Positions 4,476 through 32,000 of a DNA stretch of 32,000 nt are shown piece by piece. This DNA is from Candidatus Heimdallarchaeota archaeon (lineage in GTDB: Archaea > Asgardarchaeota > Heimdallarchaeia > Heimdallarchaeales > Heimdallarchaeaceae), in NCBI GenBank assembly GCA_030668875.1, contig DAOVER010000026.1, positions 1 through 32,000 on the forward strand, written 5' to 3'. Under the pieces are notes generated by a model. The model did no database searches. It saw only the letters and a program-made list of their open reading frames with translations, and was not told the DNA's origin. Numbering within the stretch: the first letter of the stretch is position 1; the number at the start of each line of letters is the position of its first letter. Made by a program: the position numbers and the translations under genes.

Positions 4476-4556
4476 AGTGATTCTCCTCAACTATTCATTT
4501 TCAATTAAGTAGAAAACTCTTAAAAGGAAGGAAAAATATCAATATTTGAAGTAGAG

Positions 4557-5870: not shown

Positions 5871-6039
5871 ACTTATTCTTGTTAGTTATACATTTTTTGC
5901 CATGTTTTAAATATCCATATTCACGTCTTAGCCTTCCTTTTTGGCAAATTCTTGGCATATGTAAAGCGAAAAGTATATAATAGCTCAAAAATGCCTTTTA
6001 CCAAATTAAGTCTCGCTGGTGAATGTTTCAGTCATTACC

Positions 6040-6047
6040 TTTAAATA
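6040..6047 (+). promoter_or_regulatory. Candidate archaeal TATA box TTTAAATA upstream of the CD36-like gene
   Basis: Matches the TTTAWATA consensus 48 nt upstream of ATG 6096; SD-like GAGGA at 6084-6088. Specificity is low in AT-rich DNA. Confidence 0.35.
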
Positions 6048-6095
6048 TCTATTAGCGAGACGAAACGATAAATAATTATTAATGAGGATAATAGA

Positions 6096-9000: not shown

Positions 9001-9170
9001 TCTATCATGAAGTAAGAGAAACCTTCTTAGATCTAATTGATAGTGCTGATGCTTTGAGAACATTGGGTGCTTTTGGTTCAATGTTTATAGTTGCTGCCGG
9101 TTTTGTTGTTGCATCTGTTGTGCTTAATATCATGAAGAAGAAGCACGATATTTCACTAATAAAAGAATAG
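6096..9170 (+). CDS. CD36/LIMP-2 (scavenger receptor class B)-like surface protein with an inserted LVIVD-repeat beta-propeller
   Basis: N- and C-terminal TM helices. CD36-like blocks: [20 protein letters not shown]...[53 protein letters not shown]. About seven LVIVD-type repeats (e.g. [22 protein letters not shown]). At least 12 N-x-S/T sequons. Confidence 0.72.
   Translation: [1024 protein letters not shown]
7317..8273 (+). repeat. About seven LVIVD-type repeats (predicted 7-bladed beta-propeller)
   Basis: [143 protein letters not shown]. Confidence 0.85.
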
Positions 9171-9178
9171 ACCTCTCA

Positions 9179-9200
9179 TTCTTTTTCTCCTTTTTTTCCT
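9179..9200 (+). terminator. Oligo-T terminator after the CD36-like gene
   Basis: TTCTTTTTCTCCTTTTTTTCCT starting 9 nt after the stop; T5 and T7 runs are typical of archaeal terminators. Confidence 0.5.
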
Positions 9201-9344
9201 ACTTAAACTTTTAAATAATTAATGTCTAATCATTTTTGCCGGTAAAATTTAACTTTAAATAGTTATAACAGTAATATGATTTATACTTGTGAGAACAGTC
9301 TCAATATTATTATATGTTAATAAGACATATGACAAGAAGACTAA

Positions 9345-9349
9345 GAGGT
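9345..9349 (+). promoter_or_regulatory. Shine-Dalgarno-like GAGGT supporting the TTG start of top6B
   Basis: GAGGT lies 7 nt upstream of TTG at 9357. Confidence 0.5.
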
Positions 9350-9356
9350 AAACACA

Positions 9357-18300: not shown

Positions 18301-21300
18301 CATCTCTATTAGCTAATATTCGTTTCCTAAGTCTAGATCCAAAGCAGATTTCTCGCTTGAAGAAAACTGGTTTTGTTACAGTGGCAGATTTGCTTCTAAA
18401 TACTTCAAAAACAATATCTGTTAAATCCAAATTAGGTAAGAATGCAATTGATGAAATTCTCAATAACATAAAAATTGATAACTTAACCAGTTTGATTAAA
18501 TCGATGGAACAAGAGCATTTACATGATGCATTTTATCTGAGTACTAATGACAAAACATTCTTGAAATCAATAGGTGTTTATAGTTTAGCAGACTTAAACG
18601 AGTATACTGTTCTTGACTGGTTTGTTTCTAAACAAAAAATCCAAAAAATCAAAAAGAAAATTAACGCTTTGTTAGATACTAATATCCTTTACTATCCAGG
18701 AATTACATCTAAACAATATGCAGAAGTTGTTGAACAATACTTCATGAGGAATATATTTACGATCAAAGATCTAATGATATCAACAACAGTCGAGAAGACA
18801 AGTGATTTGATTGAATTTCTAACCATTTTCTCTACTAACAAACCTAAAATCCAATCCCAATATGTGACCTCTCTTTCATTCTTAAAAGGCATTGAAACCA
18901 AGGATTTGTTCGAGAAAAATGTTAAATTAGAAAAATCTGCAACAATTAATGATCTTATAGTAGCATTATACAGAAATTCTGAGGAATTGACCAAAAAGGG
19001 CGATGATATTATCAAACAGATTAACTACCCAATTTCTTTTTCATCAAAACTTAACCTCAATGAAGCAAATGATTTACGAAGCAAAAACATCCTTTCATAT
19101 GGAGATGTACTTACCAAACCAGTAGGTTATTGGGGGACTTTTGCTTCAGCGAAACTAAAGAAGAAGATTCTTGAAATTCTTAGTACAATTACATCACAAA
19201 ACATTGAAAATGAAGGTAAGAAGAGAGTTCAATTAAGTAGCATGAAAATATTCGATACAAACCTTAAGAAACAGCTTACATCAAATTATAAGACAATTGA
19301 TGAAGTTATTCATGCAATAAAAACAGAAGATACTAAAATCTTAAAACCATTGGAAAGGAAAATCACTAAAGTTTTGTCTACTCCTATCTCTCTTCTCAAA
19401 TTACCAAAAATCAAGATTAAATCATGGAAAAGACTTATATCGACTGTATCTACTTTAGAAGAATTCTACTTATTAACAGATCAAGAATTAGTCAAAATTC
19501 TATCCTCAAGCAAGGAAGAAATTGTTAAATTAAAGATCAATCTCGGGTCTGAAAATATCATCTTACCTCCAAGAATAAAGGAAAATAAGATCTTTACTAG
19601 TTCAGATGTTACAGAACTAAGTGCTAATGGGATTTCAAATTATGTACAGCTTTTTGAAGTGACAATAGAAATTTCTAAACTCAGCACTTCGTTAAAGGAT
19701 AAAATTGCCTTCTACAAGGAGTTTGATGTTAAGCAATTGGACGAGAACATAGAAGAAACCATACTCCTGAAAGATTTTGTATTTCTTGACTTTTATGCAG
19801 ATTCTCTGGCTCTAAGTAGAATACAAAAGGAATCTGTAAAGAATCTTTCCTCCTTGCTCTTGTCTCGTGGAACTCATCTATCAAAGATATTTGATATAGA
19901 TCTATTTGATATAGATCCCAATAAAGACAAAAGTAATCTGCTCAATACAACTATAGAGTATTTCCTCTTGATCGAGAAATATCGACCTAAGGTTTACACA
20001 AAAATTGTTGAATCTTTACAAGAAAAATACTCTTCACAATTAAACACTTTGCTTTCTTATCTTAATAGGTCACCAATTCTCCTTTCAGGACCAAATCTGT
20101 CAAATATTAACAAAATAGTTAAACTTCCTTATGAAAATATAAAGGACTTGCTCTTACTATCCAAGGAGAAACTTATTCGAGAAATAAATGATGTTGCTGT
20201 TCAAAGAAATGTTAGAGGATTGACATTATCTGTTTTGAAAGATCTTGATTCCAAGCTGACTTATATTCCAAAAGAGTTTTTGACAGCTTACGAGATAAAC
20301 CAATTAAAGAAAGAGAATATTTATTCCTTTGAAGAAGCTTTGGTTTTCAATAGAAAGTCAACTAGTAGAAAATCTAAGCCTTGGTTACTATCTGAAAAAG
20401 TAAGAAAAATATCCACTATTAACACGCTCTCACTTTCTTCTTATCTCCCCTCATCTAAAATACAAGAAAGACTACTGAAACTTAAAATAACCAATGTGTA
20501 TGAACTGGTTTATTATTGCCAGAATACAGAAAAAGAAGAAGACTTGAGTCTTTGCCAATCTGTTATTCAATCTGTAAGTTCTATTAATATTGAGGAAATT
20601 GAAACAAAAGAGAGAAGTAGATTTACTAAATTCTTTAATGACCCCGATATTCTTTCTTATTTACGAAGTCAAGATATCAGAACTTTTGGACCTTTAGTAC
20701 ATTATTTAGAACAGTTAGAGGATGAAGCTTTTACCCCTGAAATTGAGAAAATCTTATCCGTTATGCGTTTTCCAGTTTCTGTATTGTCAGATAATAAGAA
20801 ACTTGTGCTAAAACTAGAAGGTGAAGGTTATAACCAAGTAGTTAATCTTCTTATTCCTGCAAAAATAATCAATAGTTTGAAAAGCAATATTACCGAGAAT
20901 CAGAAGAAAGTTCTCACCTCTCTGATTAACATGCTTACTTATCAAGAAATATGTCGAATAATCACAAAAGATCATTATCCGATATCAAAACTTAGTTTAA
21001 TCGATGATATTTTGTTAAAAGAGTTAGTAAAGGCTGGATATGCATCAGTAGCTCATCTCAAATCAGCTGAAACAATTATTGCTGATACTAGCAAACTAAA
21101 TCTACAACAAATTTCTCGTATTGTAAGACTCTTTGATTCGTCTATTTATTACATGTCTGAAATGCTTAAAGACTATCCACAAAGTGCTTTTACTTTGTAC
21201 AATAAAGGAGTTAACACACTATGGGATATTTTCCTAGTTGGAAGTAAGGAAATTTCCAAGATTACAGGTATTTCTGTTCGACAGATAACTTCCTATTTAT

Positions 21301-21986
21301 CAACTCTCAATCCTCAAGCAATAAAACTTGCTCAAAAAGACCAAATTGCACTAAAAGAAAAGCTTACCTACTTAACTGTTGAAGATGTTGAACGATTAGA
21401 ACAAAGTAACATCACTTCCATACAACAGTTATTGTTCCTTACAAAGGAAAATAAGACCACCTCTTCGCTCCAGCGAAGTAATGTGAAGAAATTCATCCAG
21501 CTACTTGGAATGCCTTTAAATGCAATAGATATACAAGAGACAATTATTAAACAGCTAGAACAACAAGGTATCACTTTAGTAAAAGATTTCATTATTTATC
21601 CAGCAGAACCTATGGCTGGCAAAGTAGATTTAAGCTATGTTATGATTAAAAGGATTAAGGGAAGACTCCCCTTAGCTACAAAAAAGAAGGCTAAGAAATC
21701 TTCTCAAAAAACTTCTTCAGCAAAACCTACAACCACAAAGAAAACTACAATTGCCAAGAAATCAGTAACAACTCAACGAAAAGCTAAGACAACAACCGCC
21801 TCTTCTAAACCAAAACCAAAAGCTAAGGTTAAGCCAAAAGCTAAAGCTAAACCAAAACCAAAACCAAAATCAACTAAACAGATGACTTTGATGGATATGA
21901 AATCTACTTCAAAAAAGAAATCATCTCCAACTTCAAAAACGAGAAAAAGCTCAAAAACCACTACGAAAAAAGGTGAAAAATCATGA
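9357..21986 (+). CDS. top6B: DNA topoisomerase VI subunit B with a giant (~3600 aa) C-terminal extension of HhH-like repeats and a Lys-rich tail
   Basis: The first ~540 aa match Top6B: SAAAFFNDNKAIAGF, GHKL N-box RELVENGLDA, DNGVG, GTKY..QTRGRFGLGA, H2TH, RYANRIPL, KIPFPETSKEYI, EIRLALMQLGRRL. The single uninterrupted 12.6-kb ORF ends in an ATGA overlap with top6A. Confidence 0.93.
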   Translation: MSDDKRAKKMSAAAFFNDNKAIAGFGNSMRAVFTSIRELVENGLDAAEIRGVNPVISIYLRKLSSREINDLLDVTQYKKLEKHLDFLQLTCRDNGVGVPSNQIADLFGRVLTGTKYGVIQTRGRFGLGAKMCLLHSMSSVDLPARIKSRYFMDDMTHELHLMIDLERNQPIVMEQREYLSGDPNALEEPGVEISITFTGAWRLAKNSVKEYFRQLAIITPYASFDIKVPGDKEGEFEELHYVNVVDDMPPPPQHIKIHPWGCDITQFKAELSSTKTKKMKAFLAEHFMGVTNEIAEDFFQLLEIDPNKSPSNITSKEIRRIVHEGFIKAYQEAKDVKRKRDRIFQFDPPRGDALSPLGAGRLRKGLEKELQPKFVEAVTRPPKAYSGHPFAIEATMGYGGSVNEAAQAKGATVNDNKIIYRYANRIPLIFGAGNDVITQVVSSIRWNDYGLTRQSDPLAIAVSLVSTKIPFPETSKEYISNVPEIEEEIRLALMQLGRRLKTFLSRAKRRKREHARLSRFVKSAPVIIENLTQILEDENLKFTDFRLETDRISASLAHGSPKKVRLYMPIGTRLFGANVWCPNNIQTALKNNNIESVSEFLLKDSKELAAFLQMTKAQIYDIKLRTISELDRDNLSPSFDTKTLVSRLVERRFSSEGERRYISLKDALYRRWIQNVYHYLATDFDKLRAVSGMLEKFFETKKDELLNDYLAKGAKTGKNTISTIDKAIATFNTVSDLKKEQLYPPFKYLKSETDNVLGEDLSIEEFLYQTVQPTSINYHPEITRTLIEYLKIVFTQITNKFPAFAASNITRMKPDWTDGYTKNAFHRRKIKTVNDFLNHSTDDLIDIKELERILYEQYIELIASNSKSVPLKDFSFVEIQQLKEDETLVMKDLAKHGIKTLAQFLSCTSEKILLKKFNTLGTLLLKESKFKLSANLHDTNRIVDQSHIKIIPENVETEFVRNQIFTTSSFLAKSSVILKKMGMKKKDIERAKKELGTPLQNWVDHDEILKKCGIVILEELFFNDSSEYNLTPEEKKKYDENIIFLRSPLIFALPELRSSSHLLTEIGINNIGRFLIWSNSELSDILYLSVNEIKALKKKIVYQKQIQSRDELGKGLTLLSRHYPNLVKYFDKEAPSIQDLYYAYQSENFSFNTGFWKKLYKLSELSQQEAIDLVHLYPKNFKDIDTLKEALLRLKSRNVETIRQFMELQPEIIESKLSVSKERKVARALYDTIRSRRFEGEQELHKQILLLSEYDEFQRNFGSPISRIPELALEELEKFRSHDILAVHQIFDHTVDEIATVLGREKGSVQQFMSSFTLLQKGTPFFEKVDRNKYKSLVSFEFEDLERFSSIEIQSLIQAGYASVDQIFYLTHPLTFSSSILNWNVVDKFRKLLRSPLTLVTWEKTVKTKTFDETENKEVEVEDVQISTLTTLQLNILQNQGISRIIDLLVSKPETLAEALSISMEEAKILQKDIRISDTGTDLAELDIFKSEIVDKLEENNVLTLEDLYFSTSKSKWRVKEVPWDIIESFKSILNLPLAHLSDMLDEDILTALEDANVKTLLGFMLTTPESLMNKTGIPDERFETIKRGMDISDIFSYFSLPSYFLPGLTFQQTEILKENGLKSVAEFIISSPQKINKLIKVPAKQFREITADLTTQSLQALYDEKGIFAFETKLFDKMEQRLLGRDSIFEFDRFQTIQEMYYTLNRDFYQNNQDLWEKVSAIQKVLSLPLHIFTEISEYALEIMSQNGINYVYQLLFIHDSDITDPLLFRTVSTYSSKIIEMRAFHYFSKLPAFVYNSNYFKRILKDTVNKSLSDVITDEKVIKDLAAKDKQYLYENYNLTIIRSILELPLRITPYFTRIKKVRRDEYKNTKIGDVFDIDLEEHSALSSFYSRLYEENSFNKLISQLTIPISSMGLPRELALKLSKSSIGTLIDFYSTPEKQVSEITGFSQKNIREIKDGLTYSNIVSFRVSQAHKIKPSSFVSEKQIFDLMGKSISDIESLFYSAEHLGISKLLPLENYKKIKEILSGSIRFVGFLSFDEIRRLEYHNINSIIDFALLSKKDLFTITQNPIYKEFHVLDLISFDELSEKRIQAAIPLSLCPSIEEDYLEKIKEIGINSIQDFISRMTEIRESHPHLVKLDIFREVQMYLSSVAYIGLNNESVQKLIYSGVGDILSFITEDPSTISLILGISEKQVDKYVKLAVPSNLVEKVDNKGVLLTEFSGLSRGRRNSLLKSGKETVQDLFSSRYQAYSQSNISDALMSEFIESCNMSLYRIEEIEPGIKAKLSKSGITRIIDLFCSTDAGLKKALDGKLPKEFKQIRKGHFTLTKGIPLSLNEPLQDIIRELNIEPSNKKIEDMFGFVPEFLLQFTESERIEKDKNLAFLEQIVSFLSLNILSLPSFDTTTKLILWNRGIRHIIELLSTNMNKIDGIPYQVISEVRSYQKNFSLSRSMSETFSPYIDDVLNLPVKKQIRFQNYGLTSALLLVDFIPHPIFSFTANEQSILRIISNNMFKPITWLSSDVSFKIEDINLLIQNRAINILSALLLLSDQDDTKALDTLSNKYYKPISAYLNSSVLQLSAPEWALQLSNTKIITDANSLKLLKKENISYLDEFLTLESKFLNNPNLITDVLPKLLSLKSLPISSISDLSPSNIQKLKRSRINNVYEFLVVPAPLLSNLLSISVENVNATKSSIDLSSLEKTAKLTGLDLELFPELSQDSRIILQRRGCVSLNQASKMDLDLIPLLSEDKLLLQNLIAMLFTPTTLIGKILKLTKNEIDELLIRDVCTYVDLLELPQKTWPAKIRKSLSDKDSDPTYLIKNLQNLEKFGVPIEKLDLAKSVTKALVDAGIVTIDHLYYLPITYVSARSKVKQPILEEIKKKLSYNINFLQDISHTTLAGCYSKDSFTIISCLIYWNNLSKEIRTDLEGSLDSIKLIEETRFIEPLTPTETKLESIGIHSLRSFILSPQIKKETGLATKLLPSLLANIRFLSLDPKQISRLKKTGFVTVADLLLNTSKTISVKSKLGKNAIDEILNNIKIDNLTSLIKSMEQEHLHDAFYLSTNDKTFLKSIGVYSLADLNEYTVLDWFVSKQKIQKIKKKINALLDTNILYYPGITSKQYAEVVEQYFMRNIFTIKDLMISTTVEKTSDLIEFLTIFSTNKPKIQSQYVTSLSFLKGIETKDLFEKNVKLEKSATINDLIVALYRNSEELTKKGDDIIKQINYPISFSSKLNLNEANDLRSKNILSYGDVLTKPVGYWGTFASAKLKKKILEILSTITSQNIENEGKKRVQLSSMKIFDTNLKKQLTSNYKTIDEVIHAIKTEDTKILKPLERKITKVLSTPISLLKLPKIKIKSWKRLISTVSTLEEFYLLTDQELVKILSSSKEEIVKLKINLGSENIILPPRIKENKIFTSSDVTELSANGISNYVQLFEVTIEISKLSTSLKDKIAFYKEFDVKQLDENIEETILLKDFVFLDFYADSLALSRIQKESVKNLSSLLLSRGTHLSKIFDIDLFDIDPNKDKSNLLNTTIEYFLLIEKYRPKVYTKIVESLQEKYSSQLNTLLSYLNRSPILLSGPNLSNINKIVKLPYENIKDLLLLSKEKLIREINDVAVQRNVRGLTLSVLKDLDSKLTYIPKEFLTAYEINQLKKENIYSFEEALVFNRKSTSRKSKPWLLSEKVRKISTINTLSLSSYLPSSKIQERLLKLKITNVYELVYYCQNTEKEEDLSLCQSVIQSVSSINIEEIETKERSRFTKFFNDPDILSYLRSQDIRTFGPLVHYLEQLEDEAFTPEIEKILSVMRFPVSVLSDNKKLVLKLEGEGYNQVVNLLIPAKIINSLKSNITENQKKVLTSLINMLTYQEICRIITKDHYPISKLSLIDDILLKELVKAGYASVAHLKSAETIIADTSKLNLQQISRIVRLFDSSIYYMSEMLKDYPQSAFTLYNKGVNTLWDIFLVGSKEISKITGISVRQITSYLSTLNPQAIKLAQKDQIALKEKLTYLTVEDVERLEQSNITSIQQLLFLTKENKTTSSLQRSNVKKFIQLLGMPLNAIDIQETIIKQLEQQGITLVKDFIIYPAEPMAGKVDLSYVMIKRIKGRLPLATKKKAKKSSQKTSSAKPTTTKKTTIAKKSVTTQRKAKTTTASSKPKPKAKVKPKAKAKPKPKPKSTKQMTLMDMKSTSKKKSSPTSKTRKSSKTTTKKGEKS
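11115..21670 (+). repeat. Roughly 50 degenerate protein repeats of the form L-x3-G-I-x-T-h-x-D-h (HhH_5 / RadA-N / NusA-AR-like)
   Basis: Examples: LQNQGISRIIDLLVSKPETLAEALSISMEEAKIL, LEDANVKTLLGFMLTTPESLMNKTGIPDERFETIK, LKKTGFVTVADLLLNTSKTISVKSKLGKNAIDEIL, LYNKGVNTLWDIFLVGSKEISKITGISVRQITSYL. Manual count, about +/-10. Confidence 0.75.
21675..21983 (+). repeat. Lys/Thr/Ser/Pro/Ala-rich low-complexity tail including (PK/AK)n
   Basis: KKKAKKSSQKTSSAKPTTTKK...KPKPKAKVKPKAKAKPKPKPK (21807-21869)...KKKSSPTSKTRKSSKTTTKK. Confidence 0.9.
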
Positions 21987-23392
21987 GTTCAGATCATAAA
22001 TTTGTTATTAGTAATTCAACAGTTTTACCTGCTATTGAGAGAACTGCTTCTTTTGATAAGGATATTCTAGTTAGAGAAATATACAGTTGGGCTAGAGAAA
22101 CATTTGACCTCAAACGAGGATCATATGTATTATTCTTAAGAAGCTTCAAGAAATGGCACAAACTTGAACCTACAAGAAAATTATCTAGATACAATCTCCA
22201 AAAGGAAACAATGAGCATTAGCATAAAAAACTCAGTTTCAATAGACAAACTACAATCCGTTAGAGAAGAACTAGAACATTTAACAAAATACTTAATGCCT
22301 TTTGGTGTTACTCACGTAGCAACCAAGAATTCACAAGAAACAAACAATCTTCTTGTTGAATATGCTTTAGATTTCCTAAATCAAGCAATGGTGTCACCTA
22401 ATGATGCAGCTTTTCAGATTCCATCTAGAGCGGGAACAAATGTAGGTTTTGATGAGGATCAAGAATTAGTTCTTATCGGTCGTCAAATGATTGATAGACA
22501 ATTTAGAAATTTAGCTTCAGTAAGTTCTGTTGAGCAAATGACCATTGTTATGAAACTCATTCACGATATTCTTTCCAGAGATATTCACAGTACTAAAAGA
22601 GATATATTCTATATGAATGTAAATGCATTTGATAAGCAGTCTGTTTCTGATTCTCTTATAGAAGATGTGGGAGCAATGTTACAAGTTACTCGTTCATCTT
22701 TGAATATTAGTGCTTCTTCCAAAGGGATTGTTGTTGGACGTATTAGTTTCAAAGAAAAAGGGGATCTCATAGATTGTCGTGCAATAGGAGCTGGCAAAGC
22801 TATATCACCAAATATTGATGATATAGAGAGTATGGAAACTGATGCAGAAATGTGTTTGGTTATTGAGAAGGATGCTGTCTTCAATAGGCTTGCAGAGGAT
22901 CAGTTCTATGATTATGTCCCAAGCATCCTCATAACAGCAAAAGGTCAACCGGATATAGCTACAAGACAATTTTTGAAGAAAATAAACGATGATCTCAGTC
23001 TACCTATATTTGCTATTATGGATGCCGACCCTTATGGTTTTGAAATTATGCGTGTATATAGCGTAGGGAGCAAAGCATTGAGCTTTGAATCAAGTCATCT
23101 AGCCGTACCTAGTATTAAATGGTTGGGTTTACTACCAAGTGATCTTTCTCCTGAAAGTGGATTTGATATTCCAAGAAGTGCTTTAATTAAAATGACTTCT
23201 AAAGACATTCATCGATCTAAACTGATGCTAGATGAGGAATTTGTCAAAAGAAAACCAAAATGGAAAGAGCAACTAGAAATCCAAATAGCAACTGGGTTTA
23301 AAGCTGAAATACAAGCACTTAATGCAAGAGACCCACAATATATTACTAATTTCTATCTTCCACAAAAAATTGAGGCGGGAGATTTTATCTAA
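21983..23392 (+). CDS. top6A: DNA topoisomerase VI subunit A (Spo11 homologue) with an N-terminal ubiquitin-like extension
   Basis: IPSR..TNV, STKRDIFY (catalytic Tyr position), Q..SD.LIED, TOPRIM VIEKDAVF and MDADPYG, KGQPD..TR, KAEIQAL. At 469 aa it is about 100 aa longer than usual at the N-terminus. Confidence 0.96.
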   Translation: MSSDHKFVISNSTVLPAIERTASFDKDILVREIYSWARETFDLKRGSYVLFLRSFKKWHKLEPTRKLSRYNLQKETMSISIKNSVSIDKLQSVREELEHLTKYLMPFGVTHVATKNSQETNNLLVEYALDFLNQAMVSPNDAAFQIPSRAGTNVGFDEDQELVLIGRQMIDRQFRNLASVSSVEQMTIVMKLIHDILSRDIHSTKRDIFYMNVNAFDKQSVSDSLIEDVGAMLQVTRSSLNISASSKGIVVGRISFKEKGDLIDCRAIGAGKAISPNIDDIESMETDAEMCLVIEKDAVFNRLAEDQFYDYVPSILITAKGQPDIATRQFLKKINDDLSLPIFAIMDADPYGFEIMRVYSVGSKALSFESSHLAVPSIKWLGLLPSDLSPESGFDIPRSALIKMTSKDIHRSKLMLDEEFVKRKPKWKEQLEIQIATGFKAEIQALNARDPQYITNFYLPQKIEAGDFI

Positions 23393-23453: not shown

Positions 23454-23834
23454 TTACTTTAGCAGGACAATCTCAATTGTGGATACTGTTTTTGGACCAT
23501 AACCTTCTACATCACTTGGCAATTCTTCAGATCCTATAACCACTTTATCAATTACTACGCTGTCTATCGGGTATTTTCTACGAGCTATTTCAGCAACATC
23601 AACTGCTTTCGAGATTTGTCTTCCACGGGCTTGAATTCCACACTTATTATGTTTATTGAGTATTGTAATTGCAACTAAAACATAGCTAATCGTTGGTTTC
23701 TTTCCGATGTAAATAATATGACTCCGCTCTCTGTACTCAGTTGTGGGTTTAGTGGCTTCTTTAGGCGTTTCTTCTTTCTTAGCTTCTTCCTTAGCTTCTT
23801 TCTTAGCTTCTTCCTTAGCTTCTTCTTTACTCAT
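23454..23834 (-). CDS. albA: DNA/RNA-binding protein Alba with a charged repetitive N-terminal extension
   Basis: IYIGKKP..SYV, ARGRQISKAVDVAE, VVIGSE, VSTIEIVL. Start moved to ATG 23834 because AGGTGA (23840-23845, minus strand) is an SD 5 nt upstream and contains the track's GTG start. Confidence 0.95.
   Translation of the reverse strand: MSKEEAKEEAKKEAKEEAKKEETPKEATKPTTEYRERSHIIYIGKKPTISYVLVAITILNKHNKCGIQARGRQISKAVDVAEIARRKYPIDSVVIDKVVIGSEELPSDVEGYGPKTVSTIEIVLLK
23778..23825 (-). repeat. 12-bp tandem repeat x4 encoding the EAKE/EAKK units of Alba
   Basis: Plus strand: CTTAGCTTCTTC, CTTAGCTTCTTT, CTTAGCTTCTTC, CTTAGCTTCTTC. Confidence 0.9.
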
Positions 23835-23999
23835 GAATTTCACCTATATTCCATTGTCTGTCAAATGCTTCAGTATAAGCGTTATTAAAATGTCATTCCC
23901 ACGTTTAAAAATTTTTCCTCCTCCTTAAGTGACACACAAAAGAACAAATAAATACATTAAGGTAAAACAAGAATAGGGCTTAATAAGGCCAAAGGATGT

Positions 24000-25796
24000 T
24001 TGATAGATTTGAAGTTTCCAAGGTTCATAATTGATTCTTTAATCATTGTGCTAAGTATATCTTTGCTTACTTCTATTTATACTATCTTTGGGTGGTTTTT
24101 TCCTCTCTTTGAAAATTACATTATTATTCTTGATATCTTTGTTGGGATAGGTTTTATTATCTATGGATGGTTATTGAGACGATGGTTTCTTAAGAAGAAT
24201 CTTGATGAGAAAGATGGTTCATTGATACATTTTTTTAAGATAATTCTTCCAGTATTTGGTTTAATATTGGTCATTGTATTAGTAATTGGTTTATCTAATC
24301 TATCAAAGATAATTCTCCTAGCAATGATTTCTAACTATTTATTAAATATCTTTCAGATCTTTATTGTATCGATTCTAGTTGGGATTTTCACATTTACATT
24401 TATCGAGAATAATCTTGGAATTCTTCTTTTCAAAGAACCTGTAGTTGAACAAGAAGACAAGCTCGGTTCTGATTTAATGAGAAAGCAGCTAAAGAATCTC
24501 GTTGACAAACAATGGAAATATGGTATGATTATTCTATGGATATCTATTATGATAGCAAATCTACTAGTTTTTCTCGCATATCCTTCCATACCTGCAAATG
24601 AAGTGAGTTTTACCTATCAAAATCTTGATTTTAGTTTTCCTAATTTTGCGTTCACATTCAACACAGAAACAGGTTTTAATCAACAATTCTTCTCTAGTGT
24701 TTCTATCCCTTCATCTGCACTTCTAAATTGGAAATTAATTCAATCTCTCATCAGTCTTATTTTTCTGGGTTTGCTTGTTCTACTCATATATCTGCCTTAT
24801 TCAAAGATTTCAGTGGAAAAAAATAAGATTAATGTAAGTTCAGCACATACTGAAAATGTTCAAGAAATAGATGAGAAACTGGGTACTGTCCCAATTTCCT
24901 TAACCACTTCTGACATTATCGAACATTTCGATGATATGGACACTGAAATTCTAGCTTTTAAAGTTCTGTCTCCACAACCTACAAAAGAATACTTGCCTTC
25001 AAACATAATAAGCCCTAAATCAAGAGGAAGATTTTCAAAAACACTAAATAGAATGAAGAACAGTGATGTAATTCCAGTTATGAACCTGGCGAGCTTGAAT
25101 CTATTTCTGGCTCTCTATATTGTTAGTTTATTTGACAGATTGGGAATAATAACAAGTATTGCAAATGATGTGTTTCAAGATTCATATGCTCTATTAACAC
25201 ATCTTTACTGGGCTGGGTTAGCAGAAGAAGTATCATATCGTTTTCTTTTGTTTGGTGTTCCTTTGTTTGTCATTTATGGAGTAGTTTTTCTATTCATTTT
25301 CATTATAAAGAAGACACTAGTCAAAGAGAAGAAAGAAGAAGATCTTTCAAGATTTGCAATGTGGGTTAAATCCAAAACACCAATAAACCCCCTACTCTAT
25401 TTGAGTGGTAGATGGAAAAAACTGAGAATTCTTGATGTCATATTTCTATTACTTTCGTCATTCGGTTTTGGTTATGTTCACTATCAATTTGGTTGGGATG
25501 CATGGAAAATATTTCAAGCAGGAATCGCTGGAATTATTTTTGGTTATGCTTTCTTTAAATACGGATTACATGCTGCGATAATTTTGCACACAATAAATAA
25601 TTTTGTACTAGGAATGCTAGTATCTCTAAATCTTGGTTTTATGTTATCTGGTGGCATTCTGTTTATTGTTATTACTGTTGCTGGAATATTGGTATTGCTG
25701 AATTTAACAGCAAAGGCACTAACAGTATCTTTTAAATTCCTTAATACTATATTCAAAAGAAGTCAACCAAGTACTGATACCTCTAAACAAAAGTGA
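24000..25796 (+). CDS. CPBP-family (Abi/Rce1, type II CAAX-like) intramembrane glutamic endopeptidase with an extra N-terminal TM region
   Basis: AGLAEEVSYR (EExxxR), FGFGYVH (FxxxH), HAAIILHTINN (HxxxN); many TM segments. The TTG start is uncertain. Confidence 0.88.
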   Translation: MIDLKFPRFIIDSLIIVLSISLLTSIYTIFGWFFPLFENYIIILDIFVGIGFIIYGWLLRRWFLKKNLDEKDGSLIHFFKIILPVFGLILVIVLVIGLSNLSKIILLAMISNYLLNIFQIFIVSILVGIFTFTFIENNLGILLFKEPVVEQEDKLGSDLMRKQLKNLVDKQWKYGMIILWISIMIANLLVFLAYPSIPANEVSFTYQNLDFSFPNFAFTFNTETGFNQQFFSSVSIPSSALLNWKLIQSLISLIFLGLLVLLIYLPYSKISVEKNKINVSSAHTENVQEIDEKLGTVPISLTTSDIIEHFDDMDTEILAFKVLSPQPTKEYLPSNIISPKSRGRFSKTLNRMKNSDVIPVMNLASLNLFLALYIVSLFDRLGIITSIANDVFQDSYALLTHLYWAGLAEEVSYRFLLFGVPLFVIYGVVFLFIFIIKKTLVKEKKEEDLSRFAMWVKSKTPINPLLYLSGRWKKLRILDVIFLLLSSFGFGYVHYQFGWDAWKIFQAGIAGIIFGYAFFKYGLHAAIILHTINNFVLGMLVSLNLGFMLSGGILFIVITVAGILVLLNLTAKALTVSFKFLNTIFKRSQPSTDTSKQK

Positions 25797-25801
25797 AGAA
25801 T

Positions 25802-26386
25802 ATGAGCTACGGGCAAAAATTATTCCTTAAGGTAATCTTAGCAGGAGAAGCTGAAGTAGGAAAAACAAGTTTAAGACGTTCATATCTTGGAGAAGGATTT
25901 GTCAAAAGTCATCTTCAAACGATAGGTGCAGATTTTGCTTCATTACCAAAAACAGTCAAAGATTATAATGTTCTTTATCAGATTTGGGATGTAGCTGGAC
26001 AAGACATATTCGAAAATGTTCGGATGATGTACTATAAGGGTACCCTTGGTGCGATGATGGTATTTGACGCTACAAAAATTAATACTTTTAGAGCATTGGA
26101 TCGTTGGATAAAAGAGCTTGAGAAAGGTACAGAAAGAGGAATTGTTCCATTCTTCATCCTCGGCAATAAGATGGATTTAGTTACTCCTGCAAAAAAAACC
26201 AAACTAAAAGCAGAAGTCAATAAATACATAGCTGGGTTGAACAAAAAATATTCTGACAAGGGATTTACTGTAGAGTATATTGAAACTTCTGCTAAAACCG
26301 GTGATAATGTCCATTCCGCTTTTGAACAATTAGGAGTCAAGATTATAGATTATATTCAACATCGAAAGAAAATGAGGGGTAAATAG
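25802..26386 (+). CDS. Rab-like small GTPase (Ras superfamily)
   Basis: G1 GEAEVGKTS, G2 QTIG, G3 WDVAGQ, G4 NKMD, G5 ETSAK. RabF-like IGADF, YQIW, YYKG, MVFDAT. No C-terminal Cys. ATG at 25802 preferred; an overlapping GTG at 25793 is the alternative. Confidence 0.93.
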   Translation: MSYGQKLFLKVILAGEAEVGKTSLRRSYLGEGFVKSHLQTIGADFASLPKTVKDYNVLYQIWDVAGQDIFENVRMMYYKGTLGAMMVFDATKINTFRALDRWIKELEKGTERGIVPFFILGNKMDLVTPAKKTKLKAEVNKYIAGLNKKYSDKGFTVEYIETSAKTGDNVHSAFEQLGVKIIDYIQHRKKMRGK

Positions 26387-26387
26387 A

Positions 26388-28742
26388 ATGAGTTTAGAGG
26401 AAATTCGAACCCTCATTTTAGATGATAAGAGTAATGAAATTCGACTAAATAACATCAAAATCTATCAACATTTGATAACATTACTTAAGGATAAGGAAGA
26501 TTATATTAGAAAACAAGCTACTTCAATTGTATTTGGTTCCGATTTCATTCCATCAGATAAAATTATTGACGAGTATCTAAGTGATCCTGACCCCTTGCTT
26601 AAGGATATAATTATCAATAAACTTCATTTTTTTGTCCCAATATTATCAAAATATCTTACTCAAGATAAAAGTTTCAAACCAATTTCAGAAATCATCAATT
26701 CGTTGAAAACTAAAACCATCCATGATGCAATAGCGAAATCATATAAGATTACACCCGTACTTACATCCCTTACAGAGCTCTCGATTAGGCTATGTCATTC
26801 TTCACTTGCTCAACAAGAAGAAACTATAATCTCCTTTCAGTTAGTTACTGATCATGCAAAAGAAGTTAAGAAAATACTTGTTTTCGGATTAAAGCAATCA
26901 GAACCTATTTATTCAGAACTTGTTCTACTAACAGTCACTTTGTTTCCAGAATTAGCTACTTTGATAGAAAAACAAATACGAGATGTTGTAGTGAAATCTA
27001 ATTCAGAAGAGCAAGTAAAATATGCATCAATTGCTCTTATGAATTTGCAAGAACCGAAGAATGCAGATGTGCTCATTTCGCGATTATTGAACAAAGAAGA
27101 TTCTATTGATACTAGATTATCAATTATAGAATCACTTGGAAACTTAGGTAATCCAAAAGCGAGTCAAGTATTAATTGATCAATTCTCTAAAGGCAATTCT
27201 CTTGCTTATTATTCAACTCGATCTCTTGCAATGCTTGGAGATAGTGTTCTCCCTCTACTCGTAAAAGAATTGGAGTATGATAACAAAGTCCCTTATATTA
27301 TTGAAACAATGAAACGCATCGGAGAAACTAGTTACGGTTATTTAATGGACGCTCTCAATAAAGGAAAGAGAAATGTGAGAAAGAACGCAGCTCAATGTCT
27401 TACTTTAGTCATGAGCCAGAAATATGGGTATGAAGGAGCAATACGTTTACTTACTTCACAACTCGCAGGAAAAAACACTGCAATTTTGGAGTCAGTTACA
27501 CAAGCATTACTAACTTTAGGAACTCCTTCCATTAGGGTTTTAATCAAAGACTTGGCCGATGATGACCTAAAACTAAGGAAAAATGCATTTGAGGTTTTGC
27601 AATATTTCGGCTATGATAACATCGAACTCGCTTTAGATGGTTTATTGGAAACTGATATCACACTCGGAGTGAAACTTGGTATCGTACTTTACATGTACTA
27701 TCCTGAGGCGGAGATGCAAAAATTAGGTTATAGTTTTGCTATTAGCAAGAACAAGATACGTAGCAAAGACGATGTAACCTACGAACTAATTGCAAAAGGT
27801 TTAAAGGAACTTGATCCTGATATCCGTGAAAAATCATGTGAATTACTTTATTACTTTGGGACAAAAGCCGTTCCAACACTTTCATCAGTCTTATCAGATC
27901 CAAATATCCAAGTTAGAAGGAAAGCTGTGGCATCTCTTAGGAAACTAAAAAGCAAACGAGCTCTTATTACATTAATAAAAGGCGCTAAAGATAATGATGA
28001 TATCATCGCAGAAATATCTACTCGAGCATTGGGTGAACTGAAAGATCCCGGTGTAATTGATGTAATAGTAAACAATATGAAACGCTCAAAAACTTTGGTT
28101 AGAGATGCAGCTGTATATGCTGCTACACAAATAGGTTCCCCTATAGCAAAGAAGCTTTCAGCTCAGTTAAATGCAAGTAATCAGAATTTGGTTAAAGCAA
28201 CAATAGATGCTTTGAGTAAGATGGATAGTAAAACTTTGAGAGTTATGTTGTCAAATTTGCAAACAGCTGAAGAACGTTGGTTTTCAAATATGAAGAAGGT
28301 GGTTCAACAGATGGGTCATTCAGCGATTCCAACGTTACAATCCTTACATAAAAAAGCTAAAAATGTAAAGGTAAATGAAAGACTGCTTATTTTACTCTCG
28401 CTATGTAAAGATACTAATGTAATTCCCAGTTTGATTGAATTAATACTTGAAGATAACCAGAAAATAGGCATTGCAGGTCTAAATAATTTTGGAGAAGATG
28501 GTAAAGATAAAATCGTAGAAGTGTTGCTAGATGCATCTACCAAAACTAGAAAACTATTCATTGAAAAATCTAAAGGATTGGAAGGTGAGCTAACTGTAGC
28601 TTTAATCTCTGCATTTGGACAAGAGAAAAAACTGAAATCTCTAGTTAATCCAATGTTTAAAGTTCACAATAGATCTGTCAGAAAATACTGTCAAACTAAA
28701 AATATGAAATATGAAGATTTCATAGAAAATTGTAAAAAATGA
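26388..28742 (+). CDS. HEAT-repeat (PBS lyase HEAT-like) alpha-solenoid protein
   Basis: Repeats such as DSIDTRLSIIESLGNLG, KRNVRKNAAQCL, DLKLRKNAFEVLQYFG, DPDIREKSCELLYYFG, DPNIQVRRKAVASLRKL, DDIIAEISTRALGELKDP. Starts 1 nt after the GTPase stop. Confidence 0.88.
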   Translation: MSLEEIRTLILDDKSNEIRLNNIKIYQHLITLLKDKEDYIRKQATSIVFGSDFIPSDKIIDEYLSDPDPLLKDIIINKLHFFVPILSKYLTQDKSFKPISEIINSLKTKTIHDAIAKSYKITPVLTSLTELSIRLCHSSLAQQEETIISFQLVTDHAKEVKKILVFGLKQSEPIYSELVLLTVTLFPELATLIEKQIRDVVVKSNSEEQVKYASIALMNLQEPKNADVLISRLLNKEDSIDTRLSIIESLGNLGNPKASQVLIDQFSKGNSLAYYSTRSLAMLGDSVLPLLVKELEYDNKVPYIIETMKRIGETSYGYLMDALNKGKRNVRKNAAQCLTLVMSQKYGYEGAIRLLTSQLAGKNTAILESVTQALLTLGTPSIRVLIKDLADDDLKLRKNAFEVLQYFGYDNIELALDGLLETDITLGVKLGIVLYMYYPEAEMQKLGYSFAISKNKIRSKDDVTYELIAKGLKELDPDIREKSCELLYYFGTKAVPTLSSVLSDPNIQVRRKAVASLRKLKSKRALITLIKGAKDNDDIIAEISTRALGELKDPGVIDVIVNNMKRSKTLVRDAAVYAATQIGSPIAKKLSAQLNASNQNLVKATIDALSKMDSKTLRVMLSNLQTAEERWFSNMKKVVQQMGHSAIPTLQSLHKKAKNVKVNERLLILLSLCKDTNVIPSLIELILEDNQKIGIAGLNNFGEDGKDKIVEVLLDASTKTRKLFIEKSKGLEGELTVALISAFGQEKKLKSLVNPMFKVHNRSVRKYCQTKNMKYEDFIENCKK

Positions 28743-28754
28743 CTCTGCTCTAGA

Positions 28755-29828
28755 TCAATAATTTAAAACGGATTCAATAGTTAACTCGTCTGTGTTGCCT
28801 TTTTCTTGTTTTGAAATTATTTTGCTTAAATTATTTGATAAAACAGGAGATAAAGAAAATTCATATTGGAGAGGTAGTAAAAACTGTACAAGTTTTGTGT
28901 TAGTACATCTCTTAATGCTTTCATCAGACAACTCAGGATTTTTGACATTTGCGAATATTTCATCAACTATTTCCAAAGTATCAATATGAGGGAAAATGGA
29001 ATTAAACAATACTTTAGTCTTATTTGTAGCTTCCTCATGGTTAAAATCACTAAATAGTTGAAATATATGGAAGTAACCCGCTTCTTCTAACCACATAAAC
29101 GATTTAGTATCCACATCATAAAGGCTTATACGTGGAAATTTCTCGATAATGGGTGTTGATACCTTAAATCCTTTCATCTCTTGAAAGGAGTTATTTGGTA
29201 AAAGATCAGCTGATGTAGAAATGATGAGATTTTTAGCATTGTATGTATAATCGTTTGTAATAATGCTATTGTCAGATTCTTCATATTTAAACTCGTTAGA
29301 CTCGCTAATAATGTGGACATTATTTTCCTCAGCGATTTTACTATATGTATCTATGAGGGTATGAATATCAGAACATGCAAATGAATCAGATATTTCAGTC
29401 AGAAAAACTTCATTTTCTCTATTTATGAAAGAGTAATTCCTAGCTATGTCTTCAGTTGCATAATTGTTGTGCTTAATATTTGTATCTGCTATTTTTGTGA
29501 GAACTTCATCCATCAAATCAAATGATTTTTTGGTTCGGAATAGAAGTGCTAAGGGATTTTTTGAGAGTTCAAACTGAGATGTGATAGAGTGCAGATCTTC
29601 TAATAATAATCCGGATTTTGAAAATGCTTTGGCCATCTGTGAACTCGGTAGTTCAGTAACTGGAAGTAGAATACTTGGTGTTAAGAATGAAAACGTATCT
29701 TTCCTATCTTCTCTCTGTAATAGTGTTATATCCTCATCTGGATTGTTTAATGAAATATAATAAGCAAGAGCTGATGCAGATAATCCATCACCTTCTATTA
29801 GAATATCTGTACTGTACATTCCACTCAT
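28755..29828 (-). CDS. Degenerate FAD-dependent oxidoreductase (DAO/sarcosine-oxidase-beta-like) fold protein
   Basis: N-terminal Rossmann-like DILIEGDGLSASALAYYIS; DAO-like blocks TLIDTYSKIAEENNVHI, YNAKNLIIST, FSLSPVLSNNLSKII. The glycine-rich FAD motifs are eroded. Confidence 0.6.
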   Translation of the reverse strand: MSGMYSTDILIEGDGLSASALAYYISLNNPDEDITLLQREDRKDTFSFLTPSILLPVTELPSSQMAKAFSKSGLLLEDLHSITSQFELSKNPLALLFRTKKSFDLMDEVLTKIADTNIKHNNYATEDIARNYSFINRENEVFLTEISDSFACSDIHTLIDTYSKIAEENNVHIISESNEFKYEESDNSIITNDYTYNAKNLIISTSADLLPNNSFQEMKGFKVSTPIIEKFPRISLYDVDTKSFMWLEEAGYFHIFQLFSDFNHEEATNKTKVLFNSIFPHIDTLEIVDEIFANVKNPELSDESIKRCTNTKLVQFLLPLQYEFSLSPVLSNNLSKIISKQEKGNTDELTIESVLNY

Positions 29829-29877: not shown

Positions 29878-30147
29878 ATGGCTCATGATATAATTCTAAA
29901 GGTTATCAAACAAGAAGGTAATTGTGCAGCAGGTCACAATGTAGGCGATGAAATCACAATTAGCTTCGAAAAGAATGAAATTAAAGGTAAAATATGCCTT
30001 CACGCACTTTATTCCGTTTTACCTAAAGTGTTTGCAATGGCTTACGGGGCAGAATTTCCTTGGCTAGAAGATGCTGATGTATCAACTCATGCGTGTCCAG
30101 ACGCACACAATCCATTAACCTATCAAGTTACAAGAATTCGAAAATAA
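29878..30147 (+). CDS. TIGR04076-like small Cys-containing protein
   Basis: GNCAAGHNVGDE, ICLHALYSVLP, GAEFPW, CPDAHNPLTYQVTR pattern; 89 aa. Confidence 0.8.
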   Translation: MAHDIILKVIKQEGNCAAGHNVGDEITISFEKNEIKGKICLHALYSVLPKVFAMAYGAEFPWLEDADVSTHACPDAHNPLTYQVTRIRK

Positions 30148-30232: not shown

Positions 30233-31102
30233 TTGAGCAATAAATCTATTCTAGTGGAGCAGGATGGCAATTTTACAGTAAAGCAGTTTCACAACTTTGT
30301 TCAAGGAGTGAAACTGTACTTTGGAGATAACAAAGATTTAGTACATTTTATAAATGACATGATTCTCAATGAAAAATGCTGGAAAAAGATTTTTCAAGAT
30401 AGTGAATATGCAGAAGAAATAATCTTTAACAGAGATATTAATAGTTCAAAGGAATCAAATAAACAACAGGAAGAAAAGAAATTAATTGGATATTTTAGGG
30501 AATATTTTGAAGATCTTATCACTTCTAAAGTTACAAATCTAGAGAAACATCTTATTAAGCATTATACCAGGAAAAATTCGAAAAATGAAGAGAAATATAT
30601 ATTCAAAAATGAAGTAGATGCTTTTGTAAGTAACTTAATAGGTAGATTAGGGATTCATCAACCAAATTTCACAAGCAAATATAGTGAACCGTACCAGAAA
30701 GCTTTTCTTCTAAATAATCTTGAATATGACCAAATCTATAGACCCTCAGAAAAATTTTTATCCGAACTAAAGAAAAATGGTGCAAATTTAATAGTGTTAT
30801 TGAATGGGATATCTAAACATACAACTAAAGCAGGTTTTGACGATATTATAATCTGGAAACAATCTGATAAAGAATGTATCGATGTAAGAATTATTCAAAT
30901 GAAAAGCGGATCTCATCTAAATCTTAAAGGATCCTGGAACCCATTATATAACCATTATTCGAAATCTAGTTCTCTTGTTAGGTATAGAACATCAAAAAAA
31001 AGCAACTTTCTAGATGCGAAGATGAGAAATTGTTTCAGAAGACTGTTGAATTCAGAAATATCTCCTATTAGAAAAGAAATAACAAAAAAAATAATGGTTT
31101 GA
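30233..31102 (+). CDS. Hypothetical protein, possible PD-(D/E)xK nuclease
   Basis: 289-aa ORF with TTG start. GFDDIIIW...VRIIQMKSG resembles the D...(E/Q)xK motif of restriction-endonuclease-like folds. Confidence 0.45.
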   Translation: MSNKSILVEQDGNFTVKQFHNFVQGVKLYFGDNKDLVHFINDMILNEKCWKKIFQDSEYAEEIIFNRDINSSKESNKQQEEKKLIGYFREYFEDLITSKVTNLEKHLIKHYTRKNSKNEEKYIFKNEVDAFVSNLIGRLGIHQPNFTSKYSEPYQKAFLLNNLEYDQIYRPSEKFLSELKKNGANLIVLLNGISKHTTKAGFDDIIIWKQSDKECIDVRIIQMKSGSHLNLKGSWNPLYNHYSKSSSLVRYRTSKKSNFLDAKMRNCFRRLLNSEISPIRKEITKKIMV

Positions 31103-32000
31103 AGAATTTTATTGAACTTATTCTTAAGAAATATAGTTTCTATACTGAATGTGTGGGCGGAGGATTTTGGAGTAACTTTACAAAAAGTGCAGGTTGGACA
31201 CTAGAAAAACTTATCATAGATTTGAAGAAACAATATCCTGATATCTTGAAACGCCCGCTTCAAGATTATTTAAATGCAATAGTCAAGCAGAATCAATTTG
31301 TAGACTTAATTCAAAATGGTTGCACGCAGATTATTTCTCTGAATAAGAACAAACATTGGGAAATCTCATACACATATACATCTGAATCATTGTTTGAAAT
31401 TAAAATAAGAAATGAATTATGGAGTAAGAGAGTCAAATTTTCTGGGGAATATTTTCTACCTTGTTCCTTCAATAGAGTGGATGAACAGAACAAGAATATT
31501 TACATAAAACTCAAAGGATTTCCCCTATCGAAATCAGCAAGCAATATTAATGAAGCAATATGCAATTACTTGAATGATGTAATTAATAAAATCTGTTTCT
31601 CATTTCCAATCTCAGAACAACTTTATTGTGACATTCAAAATGATCCAAAATTACTATTATCTCAAATCAATAAAATCCATAAGAAAATCTATAGAGAATT
31701 CATCCTTTATATGCCTGAAATAAAAGATATTTTGGGTCCAAATGGATTTACTACAGTCTTATATACACTGTCTGAAGATTTAGATTTTAAGGAATATATT
31801 GATGCGATCTTCAATCTCTGGTCAGTTAAACCATATGATGTGGTTCTTCACATGATACACCCAAGTAAACATGTACTATCTGATTTTTACAGCAAAACTC
31901 AAGAAAAACTTCTAGGTGATATAACCAAACTTGAACATAAAATGCTAAGATTAGTATTGGAGTTTTTTACTTCAGATAATTTGAGAAAAAAGAGTAAAAA
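31099..32000 (+). CDS. Hypothetical protein, 3'-truncated by the window edge and absent from the supplied ORF track; may be the frameshifted continuation of 30233..31102
   Basis: I translated this frame by hand. It is stop-free from 31072 to 32000 (LKNFIELILKKYSFYTECVGGGFWSNF...LEFFTSDNLRKKSK). The TTG at 31099 overlaps the upstream TGA (TTGA). Confidence 0.75.
   Translation, partial: MKNFIELILKKYSFYTECVGGGFWSNFTKSAGWTLEKLIIDLKKQYPDILKRPLQDYLNAIVKQNQFVDLIQNGCTQIISLNKNKHWEISYTYTSESLFEIKIRNELWSKRVKFSGEYFLPCSFNRVDEQNKNIYIKLKGFPLSKSASNINEAICNYLNDVINKICFSFPISEQLYCDIQNDPKLLLSQINKIHKKIYREFILYMPEIKDILGPNGFTTVLYTLSEDLDFKEYIDAIFNLWSVKPYDVVLHMIHPSKHVLSDFYSKTQEKLLGDITKLEHKMLRLVLEFFTSDNLRKKSK

Follow-up and report, generated by a model that had tools for sequence, protein, structure and literature searches.

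A conserved trio of CPBP, Rab-like GTPase and HEAT-repeat genes in Heimdallarchaeaceae as a candidate switch module

Small GTPases act together with alpha-solenoid proteins in several well-known systems: Ran with importin beta, Arf with its adaptors and coatomer, and Rab proteins with their effectors. Prokaryotes also use pairs of a GTPase and a repeat protein, as in bacteria, where MglA pairs with the TPR protein SgmX according to the passages of PMC7519303 and PMC7668184 that treat it. Here we describe a trio of genes in the window, by which we mean the whole stretch of DNA that was analysed, positions 1 to 32,000 of contig DAOVER010000026.1 (32,000 nucleotides). The contig comes from a Heimdallarchaeaceae archaeon with a genome of 3.2 Mb in 99 contigs that is 92% complete. 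The trio encodes a membrane protein with a CPBP domain, a Rab-like GTPase and a HEAT-repeat protein, and its order is conserved across the family. The reading that we prefer, and hold tentatively, is that of a lineage-specific switch module, in which the GTPase and a co-translated solenoid would be the core, the CPBP protein the membrane platform and the GTPase a switch with a polybasic tail.

Asgard archaea have dozens of Ras-superfamily switches. The roles of these small GTPases are described as unknown in the sections of PMC10933270 and PMC4915359 that deal with them, and the same sections state that the Asgard Rab-like proteins have no cysteines of the kind by which eukaryotic Rabs are anchored to membranes. 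CPBP enzymes are known as sorting proteases in bacteria, an example being the myxosortase described in excerpts of PMC11980579. The available text of a preprint on solenoids (10.64898/2026.10.28.762692) does not link solenoids to GTPases. No description of the CPBP-GTPase-HEAT trio was found in the accessible parts of the literature on Asgard GTPases, Rce1 and HEAT or other solenoids; the supplements of these papers, which lay outside the search, could list the genes.

Conservation of the gene order

Three open reading frames (ORFs) on the plus strand span positions 24000-28742 in the ORF list:

24000-25796, plus strand: CPBP membrane protein, 598 amino acids, TTG start
25793-26386, plus strand: Rab-like GTPase, 197 amino acids from a GTG start; the first ATG, at 25802, gives 194 amino acids
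26388-28742, plus strand: HEAT-repeat protein, 784 amino acids, ATG start

Read letter by letter, the TGA stop of the CPBP gene (25794-25796) overlaps the GTG at 25793 as GTGA, and the alternative GTPase start at ATG 25802 leaves a gap of 5 nucleotides (nt) after this stop. A gap of just 1 nt separates the TAG stop of the GTPase gene, which ends at 26386, from the ATG of the HEAT gene at 26388. An earlier account of this DNA made from its letters (the sequence-only reading) had proposed a three-gene operon with these coordinates and gaps, and reading base by base confirms the coordinates and gaps. The genes lie on the same strand with minimal spacing and are kept so across species, which is the pattern of an operon. 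The genome has 38 Ras-family matches and 34 Ras-like ORFs, among which the window GTPase is the only one with tight same-strand neighbours on both sides.

The CPBP protein is present in 22 of the 23 other genomes of the genus, and as a query it found nothing in the 16 genomes of the order's other families. Twenty loci of the same genus were mapped with seven window proteins, the fragmentary loci of G014 and G015 being excluded. The GTPase gene directly follows the CPBP gene in all 20 and the HEAT gene comes next in 19; in the twentieth the contig stops within the GTPase gene. Four other genera of the family show the full trio in five of six loci, the sixth contig stopping after the GTPase gene. 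A metagenome scan with the CPBP alignment returned 11 loci, and all eight that have downstream DNA keep the CPBP-GTPase-HEAT order. By this check of conserved neighbourhoods the trio is co-conserved, and its order is seen at all related loci that are of sufficient length.

A HEAT orthologue is found in 28 of the 29 other genomes of the family, and there is no full-length orthologue among 52 other genomes of the class. All three genes are missing from G008 (86% complete). The lowest identities to the window proteins are 55% for the GTPase, 40% for the HEAT protein and 31% for the CPBP protein. The CPBP-GTPase-HEAT order outlasts broken upstream synteny: in L083 and L084 the trio is intact though the fetched 5 kb lack the upstream Top6A gene and the Alba gene is inverted, and at the trio locus L082 Alba was not found.

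At the junction between the GTPase and HEAT genes, 18 of 25 loci have a 4-nt overlap of the TTGA or ATGA type, six a spacing of 0-2 nt and one a spacing of 24 nt. The junction between the CPBP and GTPase genes ranges from -14 to +39 nt (24 loci). The former is a conserved translational coupling; the latter is simply short. Order and tight junctions recur across the family despite divergence to 31-55% protein identity, and the arrangement is therefore beyond chance.

The three proteins

The GTPase matches the Pfam family Ras (1.5e-35, 122.6 bits against a cut-off of 21.6) and contains the motifs IGADF, WDVAGQ and YYKG, as the sequence-only reading had noticed in calling it Rab-like. The motifs G1 to G5 are intact (G18, K24 and T25; T43; D66, G69 and Q70; N125, K126 and D128; S166, A167 and K168), and an alignment of 25 sequences shows little or no variation in them or in the catalytic Gln70. 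In a profile search of PDB the best 60 matches are all Rab or Ypt proteins, with Rab7 first (7.8e-37). Of the Rab, Ras, Rho, Arf and Ran groups, the protein is thus nearest to Rab. We take IGADF and YYKG to be RabF motifs, by the usual definitions of these motifs and by passages of PMC4915359.

The window GTPase belongs to an orthologous group of its own, scoring 371 bits with the family profile against 199 for the best paralogue. In a maximum-likelihood tree of 48 rows the group forms a clade with 100/100 support on a long stem, confined to one family. The C-terminal tail of the GTPase is basic (HRKKMRGK), with 4-5 Lys or Arg within the last 12 residues in all 25 orthologues, and a C-terminal cysteine is present in none of the 25. 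In this respect the protein is not a Rab of the eukaryotic kind, which has prenylatable C-terminal cysteines and is served by a REP/GGTase system.

Other Ras-like genes of the genome adjoin genes for FIST, PAS, YdjM and Memo and a weak longin-like gene. At G000:C69:11226-12681 a 287-residue ORF has a weak longin match of the Fuz/Mon1 type (E 2.5e-4). This ORF shares 17 nt with the beginning of another Ras-like GTPase gene, with which it forms a candidate longin-GTPase pair.

The third protein of the trio matches HEAT_2 (1.1e-32) in four stretches, which gives tandem HEAT repeats by profile and bears out its earlier description as a HEAT protein of 784 residues. The other Pfam matches are HEAT, HEAT_PBS, Cnd1, HEAT_EZ, SCD and Arm; Adaptin_N, importin-beta or similar families are not among them. 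In PDB the only matches are artificial alphaRep chains (8.2e-45) and one HEAT-repeat protein. NCBIfam gives only sub-threshold matches, to NblB (59.7 against 300 bits) and to CpcE/F-like families. The language-model neighbours are bacterial HEAT_PBS clusters (score 0.95), and the repeat units at residues 460-630 match PBS-lyase families and alphaRep scaffolds. These matches place the protein, as far as profiles can tell, in the prokaryotic PBS-lyase/alphaRep repeat type and not with adaptins or karyopherins.

For residues 1-460 of the HEAT protein, a search of 5.8 billion clusters gave 36 strong relatives; those that are named all come from Heimdallarchaeota and are annotated as HEAT repeat or hypothetical protein. 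Conservation peaks at about residues 310-420 and 505-560. PADLOC found no defence system: the CPBP protein and the GTPase have no match, and the HEAT protein has one only to a repeat segment of HEAT-ARM_XIII (41.8 bits).

The link between the GTPase and the HEAT protein may extend beyond the family. Across the class the GTPase profile gives 288-380 bits for orthologues of the family, 213-233 bits for a second tier of GTPases found in three other families of the order, and about 200 bits for ordinary paralogues. In families f3 and f4 the second-tier GTPase genes adjoin genes for TatD, ADP-PFK, a tRNA synthetase, EutA, a LanC-like protein and CheR; no HEAT gene lies beside them, and the pair is absent there. 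In family f2, a single genome (G024), a Rab-like GTPase gene (226 bits) is followed after 92 nt by the gene for a HEAT protein of 826 residues. This protein is colinear with the window HEAT family (hhalign probability 97.6%, E 3.9e-12, 106-480 against 113-495). When it serves as a query against 300 Asgard genomes, the matches are itself and, in 21 of the 27 family genomes, the trio HEAT gene, and nothing else. The two solenoids thus appear to be each other's only relatives, and both come after a Rab-like GTPase.

A search of longer proteins with the GTPase gave 17 matches, of which the best is P0086. In this protein of 1089 amino acids a linker joins a PBS-type HEAT solenoid to a C-terminal Ras domain (886-1055). 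Its gene lies at G015:C116:2-3025 (L208), in one genome of the same genus and in one of the 82 genomes of the class. P0088, with 395 amino acids, has the reverse order, Ras then HEAT; it is seen only on a metagenome contig and was found in none of the 300 genomes of the phylum. The fusions indicate that Rab-like domains and PBS-type HEAT solenoids probably work together in this lineage, and they are no direct evidence for the window pair.

The GTPase-HEAT pair is the firm core of the module. The sequence-only reading had seen a GTPase-effector module in these genes, and the partnership of GTPase and HEAT protein gains comparative support from the coupling, the second family and the rare fusions; for ancestry of the eukaryotic systems that it had named there is none.

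The CPBP protein has about 12 hydrophobic segments by hydropathy, and charged loops at residues 273-355 and 443-474. Its N-terminal half is family-specific and has six helices; the CPBP/Rce1-like domain is C-terminal. The whole protein of 598 amino acids has no Pfam match. Its last 248 residues match the Rce1-like family PF02517 with 33.1 bits against a cut-off of 22.4, and a six-frame search of the genome with PF02517 gives 38.1 bits at the same place; the earlier CPBP call stands. It is the sole CPBP gene in the window genome, and other Heimdall genomes have 2-16. The CPBP profile has no match to PDB sequences at E <= 1.

The motifs EEVSYR at 409, FGYVH at 490 and HTINN at 530 correspond to the catalytic motifs EExxxR, FxxxH and HxxxN/D, which are present in the window protein and in 16 of 22 orthologues. 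These motifs predict an intramembrane protease activity. E409, E410 and R414 are invariant in the 22 orthologues, and 16 of them retain H494, H530 and N/D534. The other six form one subclade, which has H494Q, H530N and N534E/S and has lost both catalytic histidines; Rce1 requires a Glu-His-His triad, as stated in the passages of PMC13734883 on it. The ratio of nonsynonymous to synonymous substitution (dN/dS) of the histidine-less genes is 0.19-0.30 for the whole gene and 0.10-0.34 for the CPBP domain (15 pairs). These genes are under purifying selection and are not decaying. The loss of the histidines and the retained selection together suggest that the conserved role of the protein is at least partly non-catalytic, and we read it as a putative membrane platform rather than a maturase. 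The orthologue at L032 (G021:C244:6163-7965) has one in-frame TAA, a sequencing error or a recently broken copy, and was for this reason left out of the CPBP alignment.

A related CPBP subfamily of 600-640 amino acids is found in 10 of the 11 genomes of family f7 (E 1e-32 to 1e-44), which are nearly all from one genus. It shares the basic loop motif (RGKYK for GRWKK) and retains all three catalytic motifs. In eight of the nine loci fetched it adjoins a HycI-like gene and convergent genes for one Ras-like and two Arf-like GTPases; the ninth is a contig of 2.9 kb and too short. This proximity is suggestive only. Generic Asgard CPBP genes have a GTPase gene nearby in none of five loci.

The f7 locus L141 (G071:C7), at 4376-10524, encodes a HycI-like protease and a 640-residue CPBP protein whose N-terminus carries zinc ribbons, and these genes face one Ras-like and two 320-residue Arf-like GTPase genes. 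The Ras-like gene was considered as an orthologue of the window GTPase and ruled out, with 74 bits and about the fifteenth rank in G071.

Promoter region and flanking genes

The other features around the trio are:

23948-23954, plus strand: A/T box ATAAATA, 46 nt upstream of the TTG of the CPBP gene, candidate TATA box
23905-23918, strand not assigned: second block TTAAAA..TTTCC, invariant in nine of nine aligned loci
28755-29828, minus strand: DAO-type FAD-fold protein, 357 amino acids, very divergent, converging on the HEAT gene
29878-30147, plus strand: TIGR04076-family protein, 89 amino acids (TIGR04076 1.5e-17), which ends the block conserved across the family

An alignment of nine intergenic regions between the Alba and CPBP genes shows an ATAAATA-like block in which A108, A109 and A111 of the window row are invariant. 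The box could plausibly serve the transcription unit as its archaeal TATA box. Within the trio a conserved A/T box is seen upstream of the first gene, that of the CPBP protein, only. In the second block T62-A67 and T71-C75 of the window row are invariant; this block is closer to the divergent Alba gene, whose TATA box it may be. A promoter and terminator scan with bacterial models gave 32 against 30.9 in shuffled sequence and 2 against 2.8, and such a scan is uninformative for an archaeon.

The upstream neighbours are genes for a 4209-residue Top6B fusion, for Top6A and, divergently, for Alba. The ORF of 4209 amino acids (9357-23392) starts like a topoisomerase VI B subunit and is followed with a 4-nt overlap by a Top6A of 469 amino acids with the Pfam domains TP6A_N and Toprim. 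The Alba gene (23454-23843, minus strand) encodes an N-terminal extension of about 40 residues rich in Lys and Glu and then the Alba domain (42-91).

Downstream, the 357-residue protein is encoded next to the HEAT gene throughout the family, in convergent orientation and with a 12-nt gap. It is family-restricted (17 matches) and has no Pfam match. Its remote relatives among 1.84 billion representatives are ordinary DAO flavoenzymes or oxidoreductases (10 of 13 scanned), and its language-model neighbours are likewise of DAO type. The dinucleotide-binding motif is degenerate, with one invariant glycine and GNNLTS in some genera. Matches in PDB, to sarcosine oxidase beta and a GMC oxidoreductase, are insignificant (E 0.04-0.1), and the GDI family gives no match. 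The protein is, by this likeness, most probably a degenerate FAD-fold protein.

Beyond the TIGR04076 gene the relatives have a UbiA prenyltransferase gene, and the window has two ORFs without a family. These overlapping ORFs (30233-31998, plus strand), of 289 and more than 300 amino acids, match no Pfam or PADLOC family, and they may be a local insertion because the relatives carry the UbiA gene at this place.

Interpretation and comparison with known systems

In the switch module as we picture it, a promoter upstream of the CPBP gene would have the trio transcribed as one unit, and the GTPase and the HEAT solenoid would be made together through their overlapping stop and start codons. The solenoid would be a dedicated partner of the switch, most likely a scaffold or effector that binds it in its GTP state. 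The GTPase lacks a signal for a lipid anchor and may reach the membrane through its polybasic tail, through the 12-pass CPBP protein or through both. The main conserved role of the CPBP protein would be that of a membrane platform or receptor that uses cytoplasmic basic loops such as GRWKK. Proteolysis would be an accessory activity, lost in one subclade, and the GTPase would not be a CaaX-type substrate.

Several points weigh against this reading. Binding of the GTPase to the HEAT protein, recruitment to the membrane and the direction of signalling are steps that we infer; genomic association is all that speaks for the binding, and spacing all that speaks for one transcript. The block Alba-CPBP-GTPase-HEAT-DAO-like-TIGR04076 is syntenic across the family, and conserved order is weaker evidence than it seems because two of the syntenic neighbours are on other strands. 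The f2 GTPase is only a possible orthologue: it is nearer to a paralogue, C95_39212 (200 bits), than to the window GTPase (176 bits), and in the maximum-likelihood tree it stands in a polytomy with the trio clade. The gene upstream of the f2 pair encodes a soluble protein of 318 amino acids and not a CPBP protein, so that the CPBP protein of the trio may be a later, unrelated neighbour. Fusions of HEAT and GTPase domains are rare, the GTPase domain of both is of the paralogous C68_10671 type (340 bits against 152 for the window GTPase), and generic repeat similarity may be all there is to the match of their HEAT parts.

Some of these points lead to the alternative that survives best, though it is unlikely: the CPBP protein is unrelated in function to the pair, an ordinary protease, perhaps of the sorting or immunity type known in bacteria, that shares its promoter or position, or all three genes are mere syntenic neighbours in a young family. 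The CPBP-less pair of f2 suits this explanation, and so do the looser CPBP-GTPase spacing of up to 39 nt, the flanking genes on other strands that are equally syntenic, and the 2-16 CPBP genes that other Heimdall genomes carry elsewhere. The generic Asgard CPBP loci, none of five with a GTPase nearby, and the existence of bacterial CPBP sorting proteases such as myxosortase (in the excerpts of PMC11980579) point the same way. It is opposed by the adjacency itself, which holds down to 31% protein identity and across upstream rearrangement, and by the f7 subfamily, which shares the basic loop motif and likewise has small GTPases encoded next to it (eight of nine loci). The histidine-less subclade, moreover, keeps the gene in place under purifying selection.

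Rather less probable again is that the HEAT solenoid regulates the GTPase, as an exchange factor or holding chaperone, instead of acting as its effector, the fixed ratio keeping the switch soluble or loaded. SmgGDS and Ric-8 are exchange factors or chaperones of the ARM/HEAT type. A tight 1:1 translational coupling would suit a stoichiometric chaperone or regulator at least equally well, the block contains no longin, roadblock or TBC gene and no other known regulator, and P0086 and P0088 indicate that a GTPase and HEAT repeats can work in one chain. The solenoid has, however, no sequence similarity to known exchange factors, and the data do not distinguish a regulator from an effector.

That the CPBP protein cuts the adjacent GTPase at its C-terminus, in the way Rce1 trims prenylated Ras and Rho, the reasoning of the sequence-only reading, is very improbable: the triad intact in the window protein and 16 of 22 orthologues, the adjacent genes and the conserved GTPase tail would fit, but the tail has no cysteine in any of 25 orthologues, no Ras-like ORF of the 34 in the genome ends in CaaX, the 92%-complete genome has no match to the prenyltransferase alpha subunit PPTA and one weak 22-bit match only to the prenyltransferase beta repeat, six of 22 CPBP orthologues lack both histidines that Rce1 needs, and the GTPase tails are unchanged in this subclade. 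With neither prenylated substrates nor a protein prenyltransferase found, CaaX-type processing is largely refuted.

A more speculative extension of the switch module, which we consider improbable, would have a dedicated polytopic receptor, descended from a CPBP protease and by now a pseudo-enzyme in one subclade, recruit the GTPase with its basic tail, the GTP form of which would assemble the HEAT solenoid on the membrane as an adaptor-like or coat-like layer. The FAD-fold protein would then be a holder of the GDP form. A role of the kind played by GDI or REP might be considered for this neighbour because GDI and REP are FAD-fold proteins without a flavin. The idea is a speculative one, prompted by passages of PMC4915359.

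If this extension were true, Heimdallarchaeaceae would put a Rab-like switch on a membrane, together with a coupled solenoid scaffold, without prenylation, and no Asgard small GTPase would have had its receptor and effector defined as a set before. The trio is in any case a concrete candidate for the way in which Rab-like switches without an anchor come to a membrane and to a partner. With its genetic tie to a single solenoid and a single membrane protein, the switch makes a tractable test case of three proteins, in which a CPBP domain is seen drifting from enzyme to apparent scaffold. The module is found in one family and the CPBP-less pair in a second, so it is not the ancestor of eukaryotic trafficking systems; it informs by analogy on how systems of GTPase, solenoid and membrane can arise.

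Like the Asgard Rab-like proteins and Rab7/Ypt7, the window GTPase has the Ras-superfamily fold, G1-G5 and the catalytic Gln. It also resembles other Asgard Rab-like proteins, as far as PMC4915359 and PMC10933270 describe them in the passages concerned, in having no C-terminal cysteines. It differs from the Asgard Rab-like proteins and Rab7 in forming its own clade on a long stem and in its conserved polybasic tail, and from the Asgard Rab-like proteins in the same passages in being fixed in an operon with two partners.

The CPBP protein shares the PF02517 domain and the motifs EExxxR, FxxxH and HxxxN with Rce1 and the CPBP proteases, including Rce1 of M. maripaludis and myxosortase. It is twice the usual size of these proteins and has a family-specific N-terminal half and charged loops. 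Unlike the case of Rce1, no CaaX substrates were found in the genome, and the histidines are lost in six of 22 orthologues.

The repeat units at residues 460-630 of the HEAT protein are like those of NblB, CpcE/F and artificial alphaRep. The protein differs from NblB and CpcE/F in scoring far below the equivalog cut-offs and in its 460 N-terminal residues, which among named relatives are restricted to Heimdallarchaeota. The module as a whole, like Ran with importin beta, Arf with its adaptor and MglA with SgmX, has a switch and a large helical-repeat protein. Unlike those pairs it is known from genes alone, the pairing being suggested by gene order and fusions, and its repeats are prokaryotic HEAT repeats of the PBS type, not adaptin, karyopherin or TPR repeats.

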